From an uncultured Methanosarcinales archaeon (GTDB taxonomy: Archaea > Nanobdellota > Nanobdellia > Woesearchaeales > CAZOXR01): a stretch of DNA of 64,000 nt. Made by a program: the position numbers and the translations under genes. Positions 1,645-63,323 of this stretch are shown here, one piece after another (position 1 is the stretch's first letter; each line of letters opens with the position of its first letter). The notes under the pieces were generated by a model, which did not search any database, was not told the origin of the DNA, and saw only the letters and a program-made list of their open reading frames with translations. The DNA is taken from contig CAZMIO010000001.1 of assembly GCA_964566535.1 (NCBI GenBank), positions 62,001 through 126,000 of the forward strand, in the 5' to 3' direction.

Positions 1645-2061
1645 TTATGCTACTATTTCTGGAACAGTGACTACTGAATCTTGTATATGGTGTTTAGGAT
1701 TAATTGGAGCAGAAATCTGCTGGGTAAAGTTCTCTTCACTGGAAAAAATTGGAATAATTTTGTTTCTTAATTTTCCGATAAAATTTAATCGAATTGATAT
1801 GATGTTATTTTTAATTGAAGCTTTGAAATCTCCATGAACTAAGTTATTAAATATTAGTTTTTTAAGACCTGATACTTTTGAAACATCAAAAATTCTGATT
1901 CCAGTAATAAAATTTTCTGTATCAAAATCAATTATAAAATTTTGAAATTCCACTGACATTTTGTAATCCCTATCCCTAATTCTAAAGGTCAGCATATCAT
2001 GCTTATAATCGTATAAAAACTCACCTTTTCCAGAAGCGTTTAAATGTCTTTCTTTATTCAT
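1645..2061 (-). CDS. DUF2283-like protein, putative antitoxin
   Basis: YDYKHDMLTFRI...IIDFDTENFITGIRIFDVSK resembles the DUF2283 pattern (YD..xD.L.I...D.D..G.I.GIEI..AS); overlaps the upstream small gene. Confidence 0.6.
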   Translation of the reverse strand: MNKERHLNASGKGEFLYDYKHDMLTFRIRDRDYKMSVEFQNFIIDFDTENFITGIRIFDVSKVSGLKKLIFNNLVHGDFKASIKNNIISIRLNFIGKLRNKIIPIFSSEENFTQQISAPINPKHHIQDSVVTVPEIVA

Positions 2062-2386
2062 TTTTTATATCCAGTTTAGGTATTTCGAGTATATTAATAA
2101 AAGTTACTATTGTTATTTTTTTATCGTCAACTTCTAGTATTAATTTCAGATAACCTTCAGGTTTACGGTAATATGCGGCGTATCTCCCATTAAATTGTAA
2201 GTATATTTTTCTAGGGCTCTCCTTTTCAATCATGTTAACTAACTCTTCTTCTTTAAATACTTTTCTTTGTTTTTCGCTTAAATGGTCAAGGGCATGGGTA
2301 GAGATGCTATTCTCTTTGTTAGTTAGAATACCTTTAAAATCAACTTTATTAATTTCTTCAATGGGACGTGTTGTATAATTATCCAT
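2054..2386 (-). CDS. DUF4258/RelE-like small protein, putative toxin
   Basis: ISTHALDHL near the N-terminus and ITIVTF at the C-terminus; coupled to the DUF2283-like gene. Confidence 0.5.
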   Translation of the reverse strand: MDNYTTRPIEEINKVDFKGILTNKENSISTHALDHLSEKQRKVFKEEELVNMIEKESPRKIYLQFNGRYAAYYRKPEGYLKLILEVDDKKITIVTFINILEIPKLDIKNE

Positions 2387-2473
2387 TGATGGTGAGTTAT
2401 CGTATGTACCATTTATATATTTCGGTTTTATTAGAGAAAACTTTAAATAAGCGTTGAGTTAAGGATTAGTTAG

Positions 2474-3049
2474 ATGAAAAAAAGAGGTGGGTTTCAACTG
2501 AGTATGAATTTTATTGTTATTATTGTTATTAGTATTGCTATATTGATTCTGAGTATTTCTTTTATATCTAAGATAATGTCTGCTTCAAGGACACAAGTTG
2601 CTGAAGCTGATGCCGCTTCTTCGCAGGAGATTGCTAGGTTGTTGAACTCTGGGCAGGCTGTTGCTGTTTCGCCTACTAATATTGATGGTTCTGGTGTTGT
2701 TGTTTTGGGGATTATGAATGATGGGAGTGTTGATGATGCTGGATTTGATAATAATTTTGGGTTTAGGGTAACTTATGATGATTGTGATGGAGGTTGTGGT
2801 TCTGGTTCCCCCGGTACTTGGGTTTCTAGATCTGGTGCAGATGAAGATGTTTATTTGATCCCTGAGTTTGAATCTGATGAATTTTTAATATCTGTAAATC
2901 CTGAATCTGGTGCTCCAGAAGGGACTTATGTCTTTAATGTTGATGTTAGAAAGGATAATAAACGTCCAGGTAATGAGGAGATTATATATGATGACCTTGA
3001 CAAAGATGAAAAGTACAAATCACTCCTAAAATTCTACGTAAAGATATAA
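2474..3049 (+). CDS. Pilin-like protein with class III signal peptide
   Basis: MKKRG/G-FQLSMNFIVIIVISIAIL: basic N-terminus, Gly cleavage site, hydrophobic helix; TATA box TTTAAATA at ~2442. Confidence 0.7.
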   Translation: MKKRGGFQLSMNFIVIIVISIAILILSISFISKIMSASRTQVAEADAASSQEIARLLNSGQAVAVSPTNIDGSGVVVLGIMNDGSVDDAGFDNNFGFRVTYDDCDGGCGSGSPGTWVSRSGADEDVYLIPEFESDEFLISVNPESGAPEGTYVFNVDVRKDNKRPGNEEIIYDDLDKDEKYKSLLKFYVKI

Positions 3050-3093
3050 TCACACCTAAAAAGTAGTAAAATTTATATATAGGAAGATTATAT

Positions 3094-5172
3094 ATGGTTA
3101 ATAGGATGTTAGAACGTATATTGAATCCACTGAAAAGGGCCGCTGTTATAGGTTTAGGACTGGCTGTAGGAGCTACAGCATTAAACCATATGGCTAAGAG
3201 AAATGAATCATTAGATCTTCTATTGAGTTATTTTGGTGCAACTAATGCACATGCGGCTCAACTAGCTCCTGATACTGGAATACCATTTCCTTCTTTACCA
3301 GGTTTTCCTCAACAAGTGGATGCTGGGGCAATTGTTACTGCTGATTTTGTTGGTGAAGATGGAGAACCTGAGATTTATGCTGGCGGAATGGGAAGATTAT
3401 ATGGGTGGGAAACCGATGGACAACCCATAAACAGTAATCCGGATGGAACTTTTTTCCCGTTGGGGAATAATGCTCCTATTGTAGGTATTCCTGCTATGGG
3501 GGAAATTGCTGATGGGATTAGAGCAATAGTTATCCCTGCTGATCGGCTTTATGTCGTTGGTCCTGATGGGCGAGAGATTCTGGATTCTTTGAGTTATGGT
3601 AATGATTCTACTGCTCCTACAACTATAGCTAGTCTCGATGGAGAAAGGATAAGTATAATTGGTAGTGGGAGAGGACAAAGTTCAATTCATGTTTATGATG
3701 TTCACAATCGTGGGGGAGTGTTAGAAGCAGTTACAAGAACAGGATTTCCAATGGGAGCTACTATGGACTCATCTCCAGCAATTGGACAATTAGATCCAAC
3801 TTCTCCTGAGTTAGAATTGGCATGGGGACAAGGAGATTTAATTCAAGCTGTTAATGCTAATGGAATTCCATTCCCGCCATATCCTATTACAATGATTGAC
3901 AGATATGGCTCAGAAGGTTCACCAGCAGTTGTTGATGTTGGTGGAGTTCAATATCTAATAACTGGAGTAGAAAATGATCTTATCATTTCAGGAAATGGTA
4001 GGGTTATTGAAGCTAACGCTGATGCTGATTTTGCTTCAACTTCACCATCAGTTCTCAAAATGCCAGATGGAACAGCAAGAATTTTTGCTAGTAATTATGA
4101 TGGAGGCACTTGGGGATTTGAATTTGATGGTAATATTATCACTCCACTAGTAGGATTCCCTCAGGAAACACAAGGACGTTTAAGAAGTCGTTCCCCTCTA
4201 ATAGGATATTTTGGAGATGATGGGATTCCAAAAGTTGTTCAAGCAGATGTTGATGGCAATATCTACGCATGGTATGCAGAAGGTGGAATGGAAGGGATTC
4301 CAGTTGCACCGTTCCCAATTGATTTAGGCTCACCAATAAGACATATTGCATTAGGTCATTATACGGGTGTTGATGGATTGCATGCTATATTAGCTGCAAG
4401 TGCTGAAGGAAATGTCCACGCTTTAGATTTAGGGTTAGAATCAAGAGCAAGAGATCATCCATGGCCATCATTCCAATACGATGATGCAAACACTGGTAAT
4501 CCTAATTATCAGGAACCACAAGGACAACCACAAAGAGCATGGGATGTTAATGGTGATAATCTGATAAATATAGTTGATTTAATCTTGGTTGCAAGGGATT
4601 TTGGGAAGATGACAACTGGGGCAGCTGATGTTAGTGGAGACGGCAGAGTTAATATTGTGGATTTAATCTTAGTTGCTCAGCATTTTGGTGAAGTTTATGG
4701 TGCGCCATCAATGAGTGCTAGTGAAAGGGTTCCTCATATATTTGATAATGCTTATGAAAAAGCATTGGTGGTTTGGGGAGAAATAAAGCAAGGAGCTGAT
4801 TATGGCGTTTCAATAGGTGATGTAGAGAGAGCTTTGGAATTGTTTGATAAATTAAGAGATGGATATGTTCCAGAAGACATAACTCCTGCTCAAACAGTAT
4901 TAATGAATAATTATCCAGATCCATTTAATCCTGAAACGTGGATACCTTTCATGTTAGGTGAAGGTGGAAATGTTAGAGTCAGCATTTATAATAGAGGAGG
5001 AAGTTTAGTCAGAACATTAGATTTAGGCCATAGAGAGCCTGGTGTTTATGACAGAAAAGATGAAGCAGCTCATTGGGATGGTAGGAATGAGTTTGGAGAA
5101 AAAGCTGCATCAGGATTATATTTCTACAGATTAAATAATGGACCAACAGGAAGAATGATGTTGGGGAAATAG
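3094..5172 (+). CDS. Secreted protein: FG-GAP/VCBS-like propeller repeats + dockerin-like pair + FlgD-Ig/T9SS-like C-terminal domain
   Basis: SSPAIGQLD and GSPAVVDV repeats; WPSFQYDDANTG; DVNGDNLINIVDL and DVSGDGRVNIVDL; NYPDPFNPETWIPF...WDGRNEFGEKAASGLYFYRL. Confidence 0.8.
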   Translation: MVNRMLERILNPLKRAAVIGLGLAVGATALNHMAKRNESLDLLLSYFGATNAHAAQLAPDTGIPFPSLPGFPQQVDAGAIVTADFVGEDGEPEIYAGGMGRLYGWETDGQPINSNPDGTFFPLGNNAPIVGIPAMGEIADGIRAIVIPADRLYVVGPDGREILDSLSYGNDSTAPTTIASLDGERISIIGSGRGQSSIHVYDVHNRGGVLEAVTRTGFPMGATMDSSPAIGQLDPTSPELELAWGQGDLIQAVNANGIPFPPYPITMIDRYGSEGSPAVVDVGGVQYLITGVENDLIISGNGRVIEANADADFASTSPSVLKMPDGTARIFASNYDGGTWGFEFDGNIITPLVGFPQETQGRLRSRSPLIGYFGDDGIPKVVQADVDGNIYAWYAEGGMEGIPVAPFPIDLGSPIRHIALGHYTGVDGLHAILAASAEGNVHALDLGLESRARDHPWPSFQYDDANTGNPNYQEPQGQPQRAWDVNGDNLINIVDLILVARDFGKMTTGAADVSGDGRVNIVDLILVAQHFGEVYGAPSMSASERVPHIFDNAYEKALVVWGEIKQGADYGVSIGDVERALELFDKLRDGYVPEDITPAQTVLMNNYPDPFNPETWIPFMLGEGGNVRVSIYNRGGSLVRTLDLGHREPGVYDRKDEAAHWDGRNEFGEKAASGLYFYRLNNGPTGRMMLGK

Positions 5173-5208
5173 AAACCTTTAAATAAATTCATCCTAAGAT
5201 TAGATTAA

Positions 5209-5937
5209 ATGAAAATAGAATATATGGATAAGGTTCTTCGGAATATTCTTATTGGTATTGCTGTTGTATTAGTCTTAGTCTTTATCGTAAAAGCGGTTTC
5301 TAAGGAATGTCCAAAAACTTGTGATGATGGAAATATGTGCACTTGGGATTTTTGCAATAAGCAAAAAAATTGTGAACATAAACCATTATCTGGTCCTCAA
5401 GCTGGTTGTACTGGTGAAGTTAGTGAATGTATGGAGATGGGATGTAGTGATAATGAATGTACTGAAGTGCCAATCGGTAATTGTTGTGGAAACAATATCT
5501 GCGAAAAGGCAACTGAGGATGTTGGAAACTGTGAAAAGGACTGTGTCAAACAATTAACTGGGCATTTTCAAGGGGTAAAGCAAACTTTCTGGAATGTAAG
5601 GGGTTTTAGAGTAATATTTGGGCCAGTTGCTCCAGAAGATCCTCAAAATACATGCGCTATTAAGTTTAAAACATCACCTGGAACAGTAGATATCAAGCTA
5701 AATGATCAAGTATTTGAGGATATTGAGACTGGTGAGGGATGGAGTGAACATAAACTGAGTTGTCTAGAATTTAGCGAAGAAGAGAATGATGTTTCAGTAA
5801 CTTCAGAACAGGATATGAAATTCTTCTTAGAAACCATTAATATGGATGATAATGGCGTTGATAAATACACTAGAGATGGAACAAGCTGGATTGATGATAA
5901 TAAGGATATGGCGATAGATATAGTTGAGTATAGGTAA
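5209..5937 (+). CDS. Membrane-anchored cysteine-rich surface protein
   Basis: N-terminal TM helix; CDDGNMCTWDFC and CCGNNICE...NCEKDC motifs. Confidence 0.65.
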   Translation: MKIEYMDKVLRNILIGIAVVLVLVFIVKAVSKECPKTCDDGNMCTWDFCNKQKNCEHKPLSGPQAGCTGEVSECMEMGCSDNECTEVPIGNCCGNNICEKATEDVGNCEKDCVKQLTGHFQGVKQTFWNVRGFRVIFGPVAPEDPQNTCAIKFKTSPGTVDIKLNDQVFEDIETGEGWSEHKLSCLEFSEEENDVSVTSEQDMKFFLETINMDDNGVDKYTRDGTSWIDDNKDMAIDIVEYR

Positions 5938-6008
5938 GATTTTCTAGTTATTACTTCTAAGTTAATATTGAAGATAGATTTATAAATTGATTATAATTCT
6001 TCTGTTGA

Positions 6009-7238
6009 ATGCAATATGAGATACACAGAGGAAAAGACACCCATTGTCAACTATGTGCATTTGAGTGGGGAGATAGGATTACTGCTATCGGAGAACATTA
6101 TAGGCTCAAATTTAATTTAGATGGTGATCTTACTGGTGCTACTACTCCATTCGAAACACCTAACTTAGTTTATACAGCTAGAGGAAGAGTTAATGGTTTC
6201 TTGGCTAGTGCTAATTTAGGTGAGCGTGATTCTACTATTTCGGATGATGCTGATTCATTACGTTCTGGTTATTTTGTGATGGAGATGCCAGAAGAAATGC
6301 GATTATTGTTTGGGAATACTGTGGCTAGAGAGCTTCAAAAATTATGTATGGACAATCCTGATGAAATCTTCTCTAGGGCTTCAGGAAGTAGTAGTAATAC
6401 CCAAAGAAAAAACGCAAGATTAACTGAATTAACAGACACATCTCGTTTAGTTCTTCCAGGAGATACGGTTGAGTCTGCTTATGAGTTATTACCCTTAATA
6501 GTTCAAAGAGGTTGTTATAGTGATTGTCCTGGCTGTGAGATTGGAAGTGAGGTTGGTTACAGAGCAGATGATTCAAGTATTAGAGCACAATTGGATTTTT
6601 TCCATAATGAATATCCATTAACAAGCAGAACTTACAAAGGCCTATTAATGGGAGGAGAAGATCCATTAATGTTAGGTACTGATAGATTGGTGGAAATTAT
6701 GCAAACAGCTGAAGCTGAATTTGGATTAAGCAGAAATCCTACAAGAATTGGACTTGATGGGTTTGGGGATTATGATACAACTGAGGGTTTTGCTTATATG
6801 TTTATGAGTTTTAAATCTATTAAAAGAAAAAGTGTTGAAGATCTAAGAAGATTAAAAGAAGCAGGATTAAGATGGGCAAATATTGGTTTAGAGTCTGCTG
6901 ATCAAAGAATATTGGATGAACATTTTCCAAAACAAACTTTAGATGATGTTACTGAAGGGATTGATAAACTAAATGAAGCAGGAGTTAATTTCTCACTAAA
7001 TGTTATAGCTGGTTTAAGAGAAGGGAATGTGGACCATCTATTGAAAACTTCAGAATTCTTAGGAAGTATGGGTTATGATGGAAGGGTTTTTCTTGCACGT
7101 TTTAAGAGATCAAATGGACTTTATGAGTTAAATAATGAAGAGTTTTTTAGGGAAGCTAGGCAATTTGTAGAAGATTATGAAAAACATCCGGGTGTAGATT
7201 GGAGAGCTGTTAAGGCTTATCCAATGGTTTTCCATTAG
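6009..7238 (+). CDS. Radical SAM protein (divergent)
   Basis: CxxxCxxC (CYSDCPGC), GGEDPL, LKEAGLRWANIGLESAD. Confidence 0.85.
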   Translation: MQYEIHRGKDTHCQLCAFEWGDRITAIGEHYRLKFNLDGDLTGATTPFETPNLVYTARGRVNGFLASANLGERDSTISDDADSLRSGYFVMEMPEEMRLLFGNTVARELQKLCMDNPDEIFSRASGSSSNTQRKNARLTELTDTSRLVLPGDTVESAYELLPLIVQRGCYSDCPGCEIGSEVGYRADDSSIRAQLDFFHNEYPLTSRTYKGLLMGGEDPLMLGTDRLVEIMQTAEAEFGLSRNPTRIGLDGFGDYDTTEGFAYMFMSFKSIKRKSVEDLRRLKEAGLRWANIGLESADQRILDEHFPKQTLDDVTEGIDKLNEAGVNFSLNVIAGLREGNVDHLLKTSEFLGSMGYDGRVFLARFKRSNGLYELNNEEFFREARQFVEDYEKHPGVDWRAVKAYPMVFH

Positions 7239-7307
7239 AAAACGAAAGCTTTAAATAGTACCCTAACATCATCAATTTATAATAATTCTGGTGAATTCTT
7301 AAACAGA

Positions 7308-7952
7308 ATGGTAGAAGCTAAAAACATAATGAAGACTGGTACAACAACAGTTGCTATTAAGTGTAGTGATGGTGTTGTTCTTGCTGCAGATAAGAGAGCT
7401 ACAGCAGGATACTTAGTTGCAAACAAAAAGGTAGAGAAAATAGTTAAGATTACTGACAATCTTGCTGTTACTACTGCTGGAACTGTTTCTGATATTCAAC
7501 TATTAATTAAGTTAATTAGAGCTGAATTGAAGCTAAAAAGTATAAGAATAAACAGAGATTTAAGTGTTAAAGAGGCCGTTAGTTTACTTTCAAATATGGT
7601 ATACAATAATATAAGGAAATTTAGTACAATTCCTGGAATATCTCACTTTATTGTTGGTGGAAAGGATGAGAAGGGAAGTCACGCTTATGATGTTGGGGCA
7701 GATGGTTCTGTTTCTGAAGTAGATGATTATGTTTCTTCAGGTTCTGGTTCTGTAATGGCATATGGAGTTCTTGAAACACTATATAAAAAAGATATGTCTG
7801 TTGATGAGGCTATTAAATTGGGTGTAAAAGCAGTAAATGCTGCTGTACAGAGAGATATTGCATCTGGTAATGGAATAGATGTTGTAGCCATAACAAAAGA
7901 TGGTTTAAAGAAAGTATTTAGTAAAGAGTTAGATATGACTATAAGTATGTAG
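7308..7952 (+). CDS. psmB: Proteasome beta subunit
   Basis: Propeptide then KTG/TTTVAI, AADKRAT, SGSGS, RDIASG. Confidence 0.97.
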   Translation: MVEAKNIMKTGTTTVAIKCSDGVVLAADKRATAGYLVANKKVEKIVKITDNLAVTTAGTVSDIQLLIKLIRAELKLKSIRINRDLSVKEAVSLLSNMVYNNIRKFSTIPGISHFIVGGKDEKGSHAYDVGADGSVSEVDDYVSSGSGSVMAYGVLETLYKKDMSVDEAIKLGVKAVNAAVQRDIASGNGIDVVAITKDGLKKVFSKELDMTISM

Positions 7953-7994
7953 GAGTTATTCTGAAAAACTAAAATATTCTTAGGAACTAGTTAA

Positions 7995-9890
7995 ATGAGC
8001 CAAATAATTAAAACAATTTTGAAGCACATACCTGATAACAAAGTTAGCGATGCAGGTTTTGAGGGTGCAAACATTGTTCTTTATACTAAAGATAAAGACT
8101 TTTTCTTAGATAATGGTGGATTAATCAAGAAAATAGTTGACGATATTAAGAAAAGAGTAGAGTTGCGGCCTGATCCTTCGATTACTATGGATATGGAGAA
8201 GGCTGAAAAAGAGATGAAGAAGATTATTCCTAAGGAAGCTAAGATTGATAAGATATTGTTTGATCCTCAGAGAAGCAGAGTTGTGATTGAGGCGGAAAAG
8301 CCTGGTCTTGCTATTGGTAAACAGGGTGCTTTTTTGAGGGAAATTAGGACAAAAACTATGTGGATACCTTTGATTAGGAGAACTCCTGCTATTAAATCTA
8401 AGTTAATTGATAATGTACGGGCAGTTTTGTACCAACATTCTGATTATAGGAGAAAATTCCTAGATAAAGTAGGTCATAGAATTTATGACGGCTGGATAAG
8501 GGAGAAGAAGAATGAGTGGATTAGAGTAAGTTATTTAGGTGGAGGAAGACAAGTTGGTAGAAGTTGTTTATTTTTACAAACACCTGAATCTAGGGTTTTA
8601 CTAGATTGTGGAGTAAATATTGCTACATCTGGGACTGATGCTTATCCAATGTTAGAGGCTCCTGAATTTAACATAAATGACCTTGATGCTGTAGTTATTA
8701 CTCATAGTCATTTAGATCATTCTGGTTTTGTACCTTACTTGTTTAAGTTTGGTTACAGAGGACCTGTTTATTGTACTGCTCCAACAAGAGATGTTATGGC
8801 TTTGTTGCAATTAGATCTAATTAAGATTGCTAAGAATGAAGGTAAGGAACCAATTTATACTGCTGATGATGTTAAGGAGATGGTTAAGCATACTATTTGT
8901 TTGGAGTATGATGAAGTTAGTGATATTACTCCTGATGTAAGGATGACTTTGTACAATGCAGGACATATTTTAGGTTCTGCTATGACTCACTTGCACATTG
9001 GAAATGGTTTGCACAATATGTTGTATACTGCTGATATGAAATATGCAAGAACTCAGTTATTAGAGCCTGCTGTTACACAATTTCCAAGGTTAGAAACTTT
9101 AATGTTAGAAAGTACTTATGGTGGGAAGGATAATGTCCTACCTCCACGAAAAGAACAAGAAGAACAGTTGAGGACAGTAATTGCTGATACTATGAAGAAG
9201 AAAGGTAAAGTGCTTATTCCGGTTTTAGGATCTGGAAGAGCTCAAGAAGTTGTTGTTCTTATTGAGAATATGGTGAGAACCGGTCTTTTAGATAAAGTTC
9301 CTGTATTTATTGATGGTATGGTATGGGATATTACAGCTATACATACTGCTTATCCTGAGTATTTGAACAATACTGTTCGGAAATTAATCTTTCATAAAGA
9401 TCAGAATCCATTTTTATCACCTATCTTTTCAAGAGTTGGAAGTAAGAAGGAAAGGAAAGAAGTAATTGAAGATACTGGTTCTTGTGTTATCTTAGCAACA
9501 TCTGGTATGTTGGTTGGAGGACCGTCTGTTGAGTATCTTAGGCAATTATGTGATAATCCAAATAATTCATTAGTTTTTGTTTGTTATCAGGGAGAAGGTT
9601 CTTTAGGTAGAAGAATTCAACGTGGTGAGAAAGAAATTAATTTTGGTTCTGCTGCTAAGCCTGAGATAAGTCCTATTAATATGAATGTTACAACTCTTGA
9701 AGGTTTTTCAGGTCACTCTGGAAGGCAAGAGCTTATGAACTTTGTTTACAAATGTCAACCTAGACCTAAGAAGATTATTTTGAATCACGGTGAGAATTCT
9801 AGATGTTTGGATTTGGCTTCTTCTTTGCATAAGGCTTGTAGGGTTGAGACTACTGCTCCTCGGAATTTAGATAGTTTGAGAATAAGATAG
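7995..9890 (+). CDS. fttA: beta-CASP ribonuclease aCPSF1 (transcription termination factor FttA)
   Basis: N-terminal KH domains, THSHLDH, AGHILGSA, GFSGHS; conserved position after psmB. Confidence 0.96.
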   Translation: MSQIIKTILKHIPDNKVSDAGFEGANIVLYTKDKDFFLDNGGLIKKIVDDIKKRVELRPDPSITMDMEKAEKEMKKIIPKEAKIDKILFDPQRSRVVIEAEKPGLAIGKQGAFLREIRTKTMWIPLIRRTPAIKSKLIDNVRAVLYQHSDYRRKFLDKVGHRIYDGWIREKKNEWIRVSYLGGGRQVGRSCLFLQTPESRVLLDCGVNIATSGTDAYPMLEAPEFNINDLDAVVITHSHLDHSGFVPYLFKFGYRGPVYCTAPTRDVMALLQLDLIKIAKNEGKEPIYTADDVKEMVKHTICLEYDEVSDITPDVRMTLYNAGHILGSAMTHLHIGNGLHNMLYTADMKYARTQLLEPAVTQFPRLETLMLESTYGGKDNVLPPRKEQEEQLRTVIADTMKKKGKVLIPVLGSGRAQEVVVLIENMVRTGLLDKVPVFIDGMVWDITAIHTAYPEYLNNTVRKLIFHKDQNPFLSPIFSRVGSKKERKEVIEDTGSCVILATSGMLVGGPSVEYLRQLCDNPNNSLVFVCYQGEGSLGRRIQRGEKEINFGSAAKPEISPINMNVTTLEGFSGHSGRQELMNFVYKCQPRPKKIILNHGENSRCLDLASSLHKACRVETTAPRNLDSLRIR

Positions 9891-61779: not shown

Positions 61780-63323
61780 TTGACTTAAAAAATATTCCAG
61801 AAAGTCCAGGGTGTTATTTATTTATGGACAAAGAAGGTAGGATAATCTATATTGGGAAGGCTAAGAATCTTAAGAAGAGAGTTAGTTCATATTTTCAGAA
61901 AAAAAGTTTTGATACTAAAACTGAGATATTGATTGGAAAGATTAAAGATGTTTCTTTTATTGCAACTAACAATGAGGTTGAGGCTTTAATTCTTGAGAAT
62001 AATTTAATTAAGAAAAATACGCCTAAATATAATATCAATCTTAAAGATTCTAAAAGGTATGCATATATTGAATTAACTAGGGAGAAGTTTCCTAGATTAG
62101 TTATTGCTAGGAAAAGGGTTTCTTCTGGGAAATATTTTGGTCCTTTTGTCTCTGGGACAGATAGGAATTATGTTAGGGAGCTTATTATTAAAACATTTAA
62201 GATTAGGACTTGTAAGAAATTCCCTAAAAAACCTTGTTTGAGATACCATATCAACTTATGTAGCGCACCTTGTGTGGGGCTTATTACTGAAACTAATTAT
62301 GATTCTGATGTTAGGTCTGCTGTTATGGTGCTTCGAGGTCATAATTCTGAATTGATTTCTGAATTAAAAAATAAAATGAATGACTCTTCTGAGAAAAAGG
62401 ATTATGAAAAGGCCATTGCGAGAAGAAACCAGATTCAAGCGGTTAAATGGTTATCTGAAAAGCAGACAATGGAGCGACAGAAAAAATATGATGAAGATAT
62501 CATCAACTTTATTGTAAAGGAGAGTAGGGTTTATTTGATTTTGTTTAATCTGTACAAAGGGATGCTTGAGAATAAACAGGAATTTGATTTTTTGTTTAAT
62601 GAGAATTTCTTTGAAGAATTTTTGGTGCAATATTATTCTGATAATCCCGTTCCTAAAGAGCTGATATTACCTAAATTGGTTGATGAATCAATTGGCCATT
62701 TCTTAAAGGAAAGAAGGAAGAATAATGTTATAATTACAGTTCCAAAGATTGGTGAGAAAAAGAATCTTTTGGAGTTAGTTGGGAAAAATATTGAGCTGAC
62801 TTTCTTTGGGGATATGACAAAACTTGATGACCTTAGGGCGAAGTTAAAATTGAATGAAAATCCTAATGTAATTGAATGTTTTGATATCTCGCATTTGTCT
62901 GGAACTTCAACAGTAGGATCAATGGTGCAATTCAGAAATGCAAAACCAGATAAATCAAATTATAGGAGATTTAAGATAAAAACTGTTTCTGGGATTGATG
63001 ATTTTGCTGCGATTTCTGAGGTTGTGAGTAGAAGATATAAAAGATTGATTTTAGAGAAAAAGGAACTGCCTAAACTAATAATTATTGATGGTGGTAAGGG
63101 TCAGTTATCAGCTGCGTTAGATGAACTTAATAAATTGAATCTTAAGATTCCAATTATTTCTATTGCTAAGAAAATGGAGGAGATATTTGTTCCAGGACTT
63201 TCTTTTTCAATAAGATTGGATAGGAAGAGCAAGGCACTTTTGTTGATTCAGGAGATGAGGGATGAGGCTCATAGGTTTGCAATTAAATATAATAGGCTGC
63301 TTAGGAAGAAGGAGATTAAGTAA
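61776..63323 (+). CDS. uvrC: Excinuclease ABC subunit C
   Basis: GIY-YIG (PGCY...YIGKAKNL), [22 protein letters not shown]. Confidence 0.96.

Follow-up and report, generated by a model that had tools for sequence, protein, structure and literature searches.

An archaeal gene for a predicted secreted dockerin-CTD protein

The DNA analyzed here (the window, 64,000 nucleotides) spans positions 62,001 to 126,000 of contig CAZMIO010000001.1 in GenBank assembly GCA_964566535.1, an uncultured archaeon deposited under the Methanosarcinales and placed by GTDB in the Woesearchaeales. Its subject is the gene P0001, whose predicted product combines a long leader, a degenerate beta-propeller, a dockerin, a helical hairpin, and a C-terminal domain (CTD) of the type known from Candidatus Poribacteria (Table 1); dockerin, hairpin, and CTD are together referred to as the tail. 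A sequence-only reading of the window had described a secreted archaeal protein ending in a dockerin and a sorting-type tail, and all of the strings that it quoted were found in frame in the open reading frame (ORF) at 3094 to 5172 (+).

Table 1. Features of P0001 and of the second tail gene. Positions are those of the window except for P0168, which lies on contig C5 of the same genome (G000). aa, amino acids; T9SS, type IX secretion system; Ig, immunoglobulin.
Feature	Position	Strand	Remarks
Whole gene P0001	3094..5172	+	692 aa (688 aa from 3106); predicted secreted propeller-dockerin-hairpin-CTD protein
Archaeal TATA box TTTATATA	3072..3079	+	From sequence; spacing points to ATG 3106
Long Sec-type leader	3106..3258	+	Moderately hydrophobic at aa 16-34; hydropathy scan, heuristic
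Degenerate FG-GAP-type beta-propeller	3265..4509	+	AlphaFold model; top Foldseek matches are beta-propellers
Dockerin	4540..4689	+	PF00404; two Ca-loop/helix repeats (4540-4605, 4627-4689), FG at end
Helical hairpin linker, after A-P-S motif	4690..4881	+	Helices at 74-93 and 102-116 of tail model
Poribacteria-type CTD	4882..5169	+	T9SS type-A-like/FlgD-Ig beta-sandwich; NPETWIP motif and LGH..GVY insertion
Second tail protein P0168	G000:C5:10700-14254 (L001:6701-10255)		1184 aa, predicted secreted; beta-helix, TolB-like propeller, dockerin, CTD

In archaea, the spacing between a TATA box and the start of the gene follows a rule. The start of P0001 is likely ATG 3106 rather than 3094, because of the position of the TATA box and the start positions of P0003 and P0004; a similar TATA box also lies upstream of the second tail copy on contig C5. 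Signal peptidase I would probably cut after A-H-A-A, leaving Gln as the first residue, and the hydropathy scan showed no further membrane-spanning stretches in P0001.

The full-length AlphaFold model was poor except for the propeller (mean pLDDT, 52). The FG-GAP Pfam model did not match P0001, yet the protein shares 36% identity with the FG-GAP protein P0005 and shows a propeller fold in the model. Dockerin_1 (PF00404) scored 33 bits against a cut-off of 22.9, and the closest structural matches of the dockerin were 2y3n_B (template modeling [TM] score by target, 0.80; E, 0.016) and 2ozn_B (Z, 7.5); the Asp and Asn residues of the loops are largely retained, with the deviations G489N and N514S. 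The hairpin lacks the Trp that 86% of bacterial tails conserve. For the CTD, FlgD_ig (PF13860) scored 31.7 bits (cut-off, 27), and the closest solved structure was the PorU CTD 6za2 (Z, 10.1; root mean square deviation, 2.3; 88 residues aligned), a match that ties within 1 Z with Vpr (9.4) and is closely followed by an S-layer domain (9.1). The tail scored below the cut-off of TIGR04183 (12.7 versus 23 bits). PF18962 had no match anywhere in this genome, and its cut-off was also missed by most of the bacterial relatives that show the model.

The protein P0004 is 54% identical to P0001 overall, has a similar leader, and is probably an archaeal orthologue by sequence. By region, identity between the two was 73% in the dockerin, 46% in the propeller body, and 28% in the hairpin, the fastest-changing part. 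The closing 81 residues of the propeller (window 4267-4509; aa 392-472) are 93% identical to P0004, against 46% in the remainder of the propeller; recombination or a strong constraint may lie behind this. The CTD retains 50 of the 57 columns conserved at ≥90% in the tail family. A conserved Lys column of functional importance near the C terminus, which we equate from its position with the Lys of PMC10994853, is occupied by Arg in P0001 (Arg687) as well as in P0004, P0168, and a protein of the genome G104; in 148 rows of bacterial tails, this column held Lys in 118 and Arg in 27.

P0001 is now a native archaeal gene

The genome (1.45 Mb; 91% complete, 0.09% contamination) carries P0001 on a 332-kb contig that bears archaeal markers. 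Genes for aCPSF1 and GatE, both over their NCBIfam cut-offs, lie ≤7 kb from P0001, and the best match of a neighboring proteasome beta gene was the archaeal model, with a score just below cut-off. The 64-kb stretch was recovered in 20 runs from 15 studies, with at least half of its words present in 14 runs; 2 of the 20 are possible sources of it. Overlapping contigs tiled positions 1649 to 8351 in all four runs that were examined (four studies, none a possible source), and single contigs at 4201-6189 and 4259-6124 crossed the propeller end, the tail, and the next gene. No assembly joints inside P0001 were listed in the contigs of these four runs, and gene order was the same on a contig deposited separately. 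A chimeric segment, which the sequence-only reading had itself named as a way in which it might fail, was rejected, as overlapping contigs of four studies tile P0001 and bridge it to archaeal genes.

The GC content at third codon positions (GC3) of P0001 was 0.16, compared with a genome mean of 0.27 ± 0.05 (1,075 ORFs), representing a host-like, extreme codon use; because codon use is host-like, the transfer must be old. Matches in a sigma-70 promoter scan were at chance level, and no RNA datasets were listed among those matching the stretch. By its codons, its TATA box, and the bridging contigs, P0001 is a native archaeal gene now.

Both tail genes belong to a class of 38 ORFs in this genome that combine a low GC3 with a high GC content at codon positions 1 and 2. 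The adjoining radical SAM gene (window 6009-7238) is another member, as are several orphans that have a lipobox or a leader of bacterial appearance. Upstream of P0001 lies a pilin-like gene (2474-3049) for which other samples carry a different allele at ∼2805-2890, with many substitutions and small indels. Farther upstream, a DUF2283 gene and its small neighbor (1645-2386), which we take to resemble a toxin-antitoxin pair, may be optional; the contig of run X5 skips 1648-2517, and loose ends occur there in other runs.

Tail and propeller point to the same donor

The tail search yielded 1,240 cluster representatives at E≤1e-30, well outside what chance would give, and the motif NxPxPFNP[ED]TW[ILVM]P was present in 144 of the 149 best matches (P0004 left out). 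The passengers of the 42 bacterial tail-bearers scanned with Pfam were mainly WD40, LRR, LDL-receptor, and cohesin domains; together with the tail, this set of passengers fits the Poribacteria signature described in the available text of Kamke et al. (PMC3909097). The commonest taxon in the top two Atlas clusters was Ca. Poribacteria (8 to 10 members with a record per cluster). The CTD scored 101 bits against a named Poribacteria record versus 26 to 69 bits against seven named records from Zixibacteria, Marinimicrobia, Cloacimonetes, and Eisenbacteria, and the earlier assignment of the tail to the Poribacteria type was upheld on both counts. A generic archaeal FlgD-Ig identity, which would have spoken against that assignment, was rejected: the domains of relatives (e.g., G167:C8, G233:C14, and G389:C2) lack the motif, and the best matches of the tail are not domains of this kind.

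The propeller was compared with 122 FG-GAP relatives. The best six, which are non-orthologous, scored 159 to 200 bits, and the others scored ≤78. Five of these six closest relatives end in an ETWIP-type CTD (four with the strict motif, plus P0179), and the sixth has no tail; P0180 and P0181 carry the dockerin too and provide the best CTD match in the propeller set (63%). Since propeller and tail lead to the same donor family, the gene looks to have been acquired whole rather than fitted with a grafted tail. These comparisons indicate that P0001 very probably arose by an old acquisition of the whole gene from a Poribacteria lineage.

Of 32 pattern matches in a single-tail scan of named genomes, which reached no named Poribacteria genome, one gave a weak, dockerin-only locus, in a metagenome-assembled genome of the Alphaproteobacteria. 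Three full dockerin-CTD tails (L098-L100) were seen on two IMG/VR contigs classed as viral, in bacterial-looking neighborhoods, and no archaeal features were seen in the three IMG/VR tail loci inspected. Mobile elements may carry the tail.

A second tail copy and the spread of CTDs in the order

A genome-wide count of tails, one of the checks suggested at the outset, gave exactly two full tails. The gene for the second, P0168, directly follows tRNA-His and is flanked by archaeal genes, NAC on the upstream side and Kae1 on the downstream side. The passenger domains of P0001 and P0168 are unrelated, and each CTD scores higher against a bacterial match (126 and 132 bits) than the two copies score against each other (99 bits). 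FastTree grouped three tails with a support of 81 and a long-branch warning (141 of 151 rows; the G104 protein was dropped by the coverage filter), and IQ-TREE (58 rows) did not resolve the four tails; the trees do not separate one acquisition from several. Among 401 genomes of the class, the full tail was present in this genome alone (317 and 289 bits; next score, 101). A further full-tail case, in G104, may be contamination, as its contig carries a single ORF.

CTDs of other styles are more widespread. In the order, 42 of 401 genomes had PF18962 over cut-off (72 at E≤0.001), compared with 3 of 251 in an Alphaproteobacteria-class sample and none of the 14 named controls, and PF13860 was over cut-off in 33 of 401 (47 at E≤0.001). 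These counts are given without a significance test, kin not being independent; one unpublished genome enters each of the looser tallies, 47 and 72 (G182, G337), and the over-cut-off tallies do not depend on these genomes. With 42 of 401 genomes positive, CTDs in the order are a pattern and not an oddity. Seven PF18962 matches were seen in one Alphaproteobacteria-class control genome (G870), as contamination or a parallel case.

The closed genome of a relative (G016, 1.30 Mb) had four PF18962 matches, and the loci inspected there are surrounded by genes like those for L15e and RNA polymerase D. The only genome of the same family (G001) had two CTDs of another style; CTD style is therefore not fixed at the family level. 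Median CTD similarity was 70.5 bits within genomes (27 pairs) versus 45.4 between genomes (1,803 pairs), and in 16 of 42 cases the nearest archaeal CTD was in the same genome, 8 rows (generic, truncated, or duplicate) having been removed beforehand. Duplication alone could explain this within-genome similarity. At six residues from the end, the 49 C-terminal archaeal CTDs had Lys in 35 cases and Arg in 10.

Small proteins of 230 to 270 aa, consisting of a signal peptide, a short domain, and a CTD, recur in many genomes of the order, and their genes often sit immediately behind a large extracellular gene (L019, L020, L021, L022, L029, L038, L039, and L042). At other loci (L006, L031, L036, L071, L087, L088, and L089), CTD-like domains are internal, lying 400 to 850 residues from the C terminus, and therefore cannot serve as terminal tags.

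Searches for partner domains, export machinery, and barrel proteins

Neither the Pfam Cohesin model nor a poribacterial-cohesin profile detected a cohesin in the six-frame translation of the genome (best E, 0.93). Among bacterial tail-bearers, a cohesin was present in 61 of 144 (48 of 131 excluding seed rows). PorV was not found in the genome by a search whose control was positive, PorU gave nothing over cut-off, and Omp85/BamA was not found in this 91% complete genome; the search for SprA was uninformative, its control being silent. The earlier statement that the archaeal host has no T9SS agrees with the results for PorV, PorU, and Omp85.

A secreted coiled-coil protein of this genome (G000:C2:161943-164054; L124:3944-6055) has a stretch of ∼185 residues at its end that was modeled as an OmpA-type barrel (TM score, about 0.6 to 0.7; pTM, 0.25). 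The gene precedes a giant Ig/cadherin-like gene, and a like pairing was seen in L132, L133, and L137; giant Ig-like surface proteins are encoded in the genome. In G016, a barrel protein of the PorV/PorQ family (L141:5847-6758), with a signal peptide, scored 51.8 bits against a cut-off of 90, and its gene adjoins that of a Tat-like lipoprotein. The predicted OmpA-type barrel and the G016 barrel would fit proteins aimed at a two-membrane cell. Two paralogous secreted proteins of the genome (G000:C1:185629-188016 and C7:15673-17676) combine Asp-rich repeats with a dockerin-like stretch and have no CTD.

Discussion

We tentatively favor, at somewhat short of an even chance, the reading that P0001 is an old acquisition that now docks on a bacterial, probably poribacterial, surface. 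The protein would be exported by Sec and, after cleavage of the leader, would have no membrane anchor. Binding of the dockerin to a cohesin on the Poribacteria cell would be the likeliest step, because no cohesin was found in the archaeon's own genome and many occur on poribacterial surface proteins; the propeller would offer a second binding face, and the CTD would be a folded module or a second recognition tag. From the features described above, we infer that the protein is exported and cleaved, that it binds, which partner it binds, and any host relationship; the dockerin is a better candidate for docking than the CTD. In line with docking, the dockerin is conserved more strongly than the propeller body, and proteins of a diderm-envelope type were found, i.e., the predicted OmpA-type barrel in this genome and the sub-cut-off PorV-family barrel in G016.

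Several observations weigh against docking: (i) according to the available text of PMC10994853, the conserved CTD motifs dictate the fold and not translocon contacts, and therefore the 50 of 57 kept positions do not show docking; (ii) in all four tails that are archaeal or putatively so, Arg takes the place of Lys; (iii) the closest bacterial relatives also have no cohesin in cis, so the architecture of P0001 may be simply inherited; (iv) full amelioration and long branches mark an old event, which need not mirror a present partner; (v) as the genome is 91% complete, a cohesin could be absent from the assembly only; (vi) the genome has two further dockerin-like stretches, and dockerins of a similar kind are widespread in the archaeal class, where they sit on unrelated proteins; (vii) the peptidoglycan-attacking families SLT, M23, and PG_binding_1 were not found in the genome; and (viii) the OmpA-type barrel model is of low confidence, and barrel-like matches show no enrichment among the genomes that bear CTDs (3 of 11 versus about 2 expected). 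The initial proposal that the tail was acquired from, mimics, or docks onto a bacterial sorting system thus holds for acquisition, which now extends to the propeller; mimicry or docking at present is a candidate role, in view of the fold-driven motifs, the Arg in place of Lys, and the failure to find Por structural genes in Poribacteria reported in the accessible part of PMC3909097.

A wider version of the docking reading, which we consider rather unlikely, is that the archaeon lives on Poribacteria as an episymbiont or parasite, recognizing its host by docking proteins derived from the host's surface system, and that the CTD style of each genome in the Woesearchaeales and related groups is a fingerprint of the bacterial host phylum.

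P0001 may instead be the passive residue of an old transfer: a generic archaeal surface or secreted adhesin (propeller, Ca-binding dockerin, and Ig fold) with no present link to Poribacteria, its tail conserved solely for folding. We regard this as a serious, if less probable, alternative that stays close to the docking reading. The fold-driven conservation of CTD motifs (as set out in the available part of PMC10994853), the decayed linker, the replacement of Lys by Arg, the fully ameliorated codons, the generic FlgD-Ig domains and dockerins of many relatives, and the failure to find the three peptidoglycan hydrolase families would all be expected of such a protein. It is harder to reconcile with passive retention that the same rare tail has been kept on two separate genes with different passengers, and in this genome only among the 401 of the class; that neither an anchor in the protein nor a cohesin in the genome was found that would hold P0001 on the archaeal cell; and that the CTD frequency across the order is far above that of the non-T9SS control group.

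An improbable alternative is that the archaeon hijacks secretion, delivering the protein into the periplasm of a partner whose CTD-reading machine would then display it on the partner's own surface. The CTD is terminal and complete and has the PorU CTD as its best structural match, Lys prevails at six residues from the end in the archaeal CTDs counted above, and barrel-like and lipoprotein-like proteins occur in these genomes; both copies in this genome have Arg for Lys, however, and the route of entry to the periplasm is hypothetical. By a crude heuristic with visible false positives, Gln directly follows the leader in 23 of 33 CTD proteins versus 20 of 107 own-genome controls, but, as far as the available text of PMC5837995 goes, the Q-rule is confined to Bacteroidetes and does not act in sorting. 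Por structural genes were, moreover, not found in Poribacteria, according to the accessible text of PMC3909097.

The dockerin could also be held by an undetected cohesin-like domain on one of the archaeon's own surface proteins, an idea that we consider very doubtful: giant Ig-like surface proteins are encoded in a genome that is 91% complete, and a cohesin-like sequence, judged by eye, lies ahead of the CTD genes in the relative G066, but neither cohesin profile matched in this genome. Chimeric assembly or binning contamination, which may apply to the single-ORF contig of G104 and finds no support for P0001, is extremely improbable given the bridging contigs of four studies, the 332-kb contig with its archaeal markers, the archaeal promoter and host-like codons, and the location of the second copy between archaeal NAC and Kae1.

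Among known systems, P0001 most resembles the secreted repeat proteins of Poribacteria reported by Kamke et al. in 2014, which end in a TIGR04183-like tail and come from bacteria in which, by the available text, no Por structural genes were found (PMC3909097). Its tail is arranged like those of the Poribacteria tail family, with the dockerin followed by the A-P-S hairpin and then the NPETWIP CTD (41 to 46% tail identity), and its propeller belongs to the same subfamily as that of the FG-GAP proteins P0005 and P0177 to P0181 (33 to 36% identity). Unlike members of that family, it is encoded by an archaeal genome and has the promoter and codons of an archaeal gene; its propeller Ca motifs are degenerate, its hairpin is decayed, and no cohesin was found genome-wide. 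There are two copies in this archaeon, against a very large family in bacteria. With the type A T9SS CTD cargo of Bacteroidota (TIGR04183, PF18962, and 6za2), it shares a C-terminal beta-sandwich of the same fold, a Sec leader, and the lack of a membrane anchor. It differs in falling below both hidden Markov model cut-offs, in having Arg for the conserved Lys, and in that an outer membrane, PorV, PorU, and BamA were not found in this genome. Its duplicated Ca-loop/helix dockerin fold is that of cohesin-dockerin pairs (2y3n, type II, Bacteroides cellulosolvens; 2ozn, Clostridium perfringens NagJ/NagH); unlike in those pairs, no cognate cohesin was found in the producer genome, and the putative pairing would cross domains of life. 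By sequence, P0001 is a member of the poribacterial tail family and not T9SS cargo in the strict sense, and it would act like a cohesin-docking surface protein with a T9SS-like tag.

Woesearchaeota with predicted antibacterial tools also offer a parallel, as DPANN archaea with proteins directed against the envelopes of bacteria (Vigneron et al. 2022, PMC9723730; PMC12352652, both as far as available). Unlike P0001, their tools are murein transglycosylases and TlyC-like proteins, and the three peptidoglycan families were not found here; the available main text of PMC9723730 contains no T9SS or Por terms. No account of such tails in DPANN archaea was found in the literature covered, with subscription journals mostly outside coverage and supplements aside. 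New here are the read-level continuity, the tie of the propeller to the same donor, the comparison with named records, the counts across the order, set against a control group, and the barrel proteins.

P0001 is real, native, and Poribacteria-derived, and its binding to a partner is plausible. If passive retention is the true explanation, this would still be a clear cross-domain transfer of a secretion-tagged protein. The tail could also help to locate the machine that reads poribacterial CTDs.

To our knowledge, the established hosts of DPANN archaea are archaea. Whether any DPANN archaeon has a bacterial host is stated as an open question in the accessible part of PMC8204110. A lineage-specific docking tail on two native genes names a candidate bacterial partner and a candidate binding pair for an archaeon that recurs across many seawater metagenomes, and docking, if true, would hint at a bacterial host for it. 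If the CTD style were indeed a fingerprint of the host phylum, testable host predictions would follow for about a tenth of the order.

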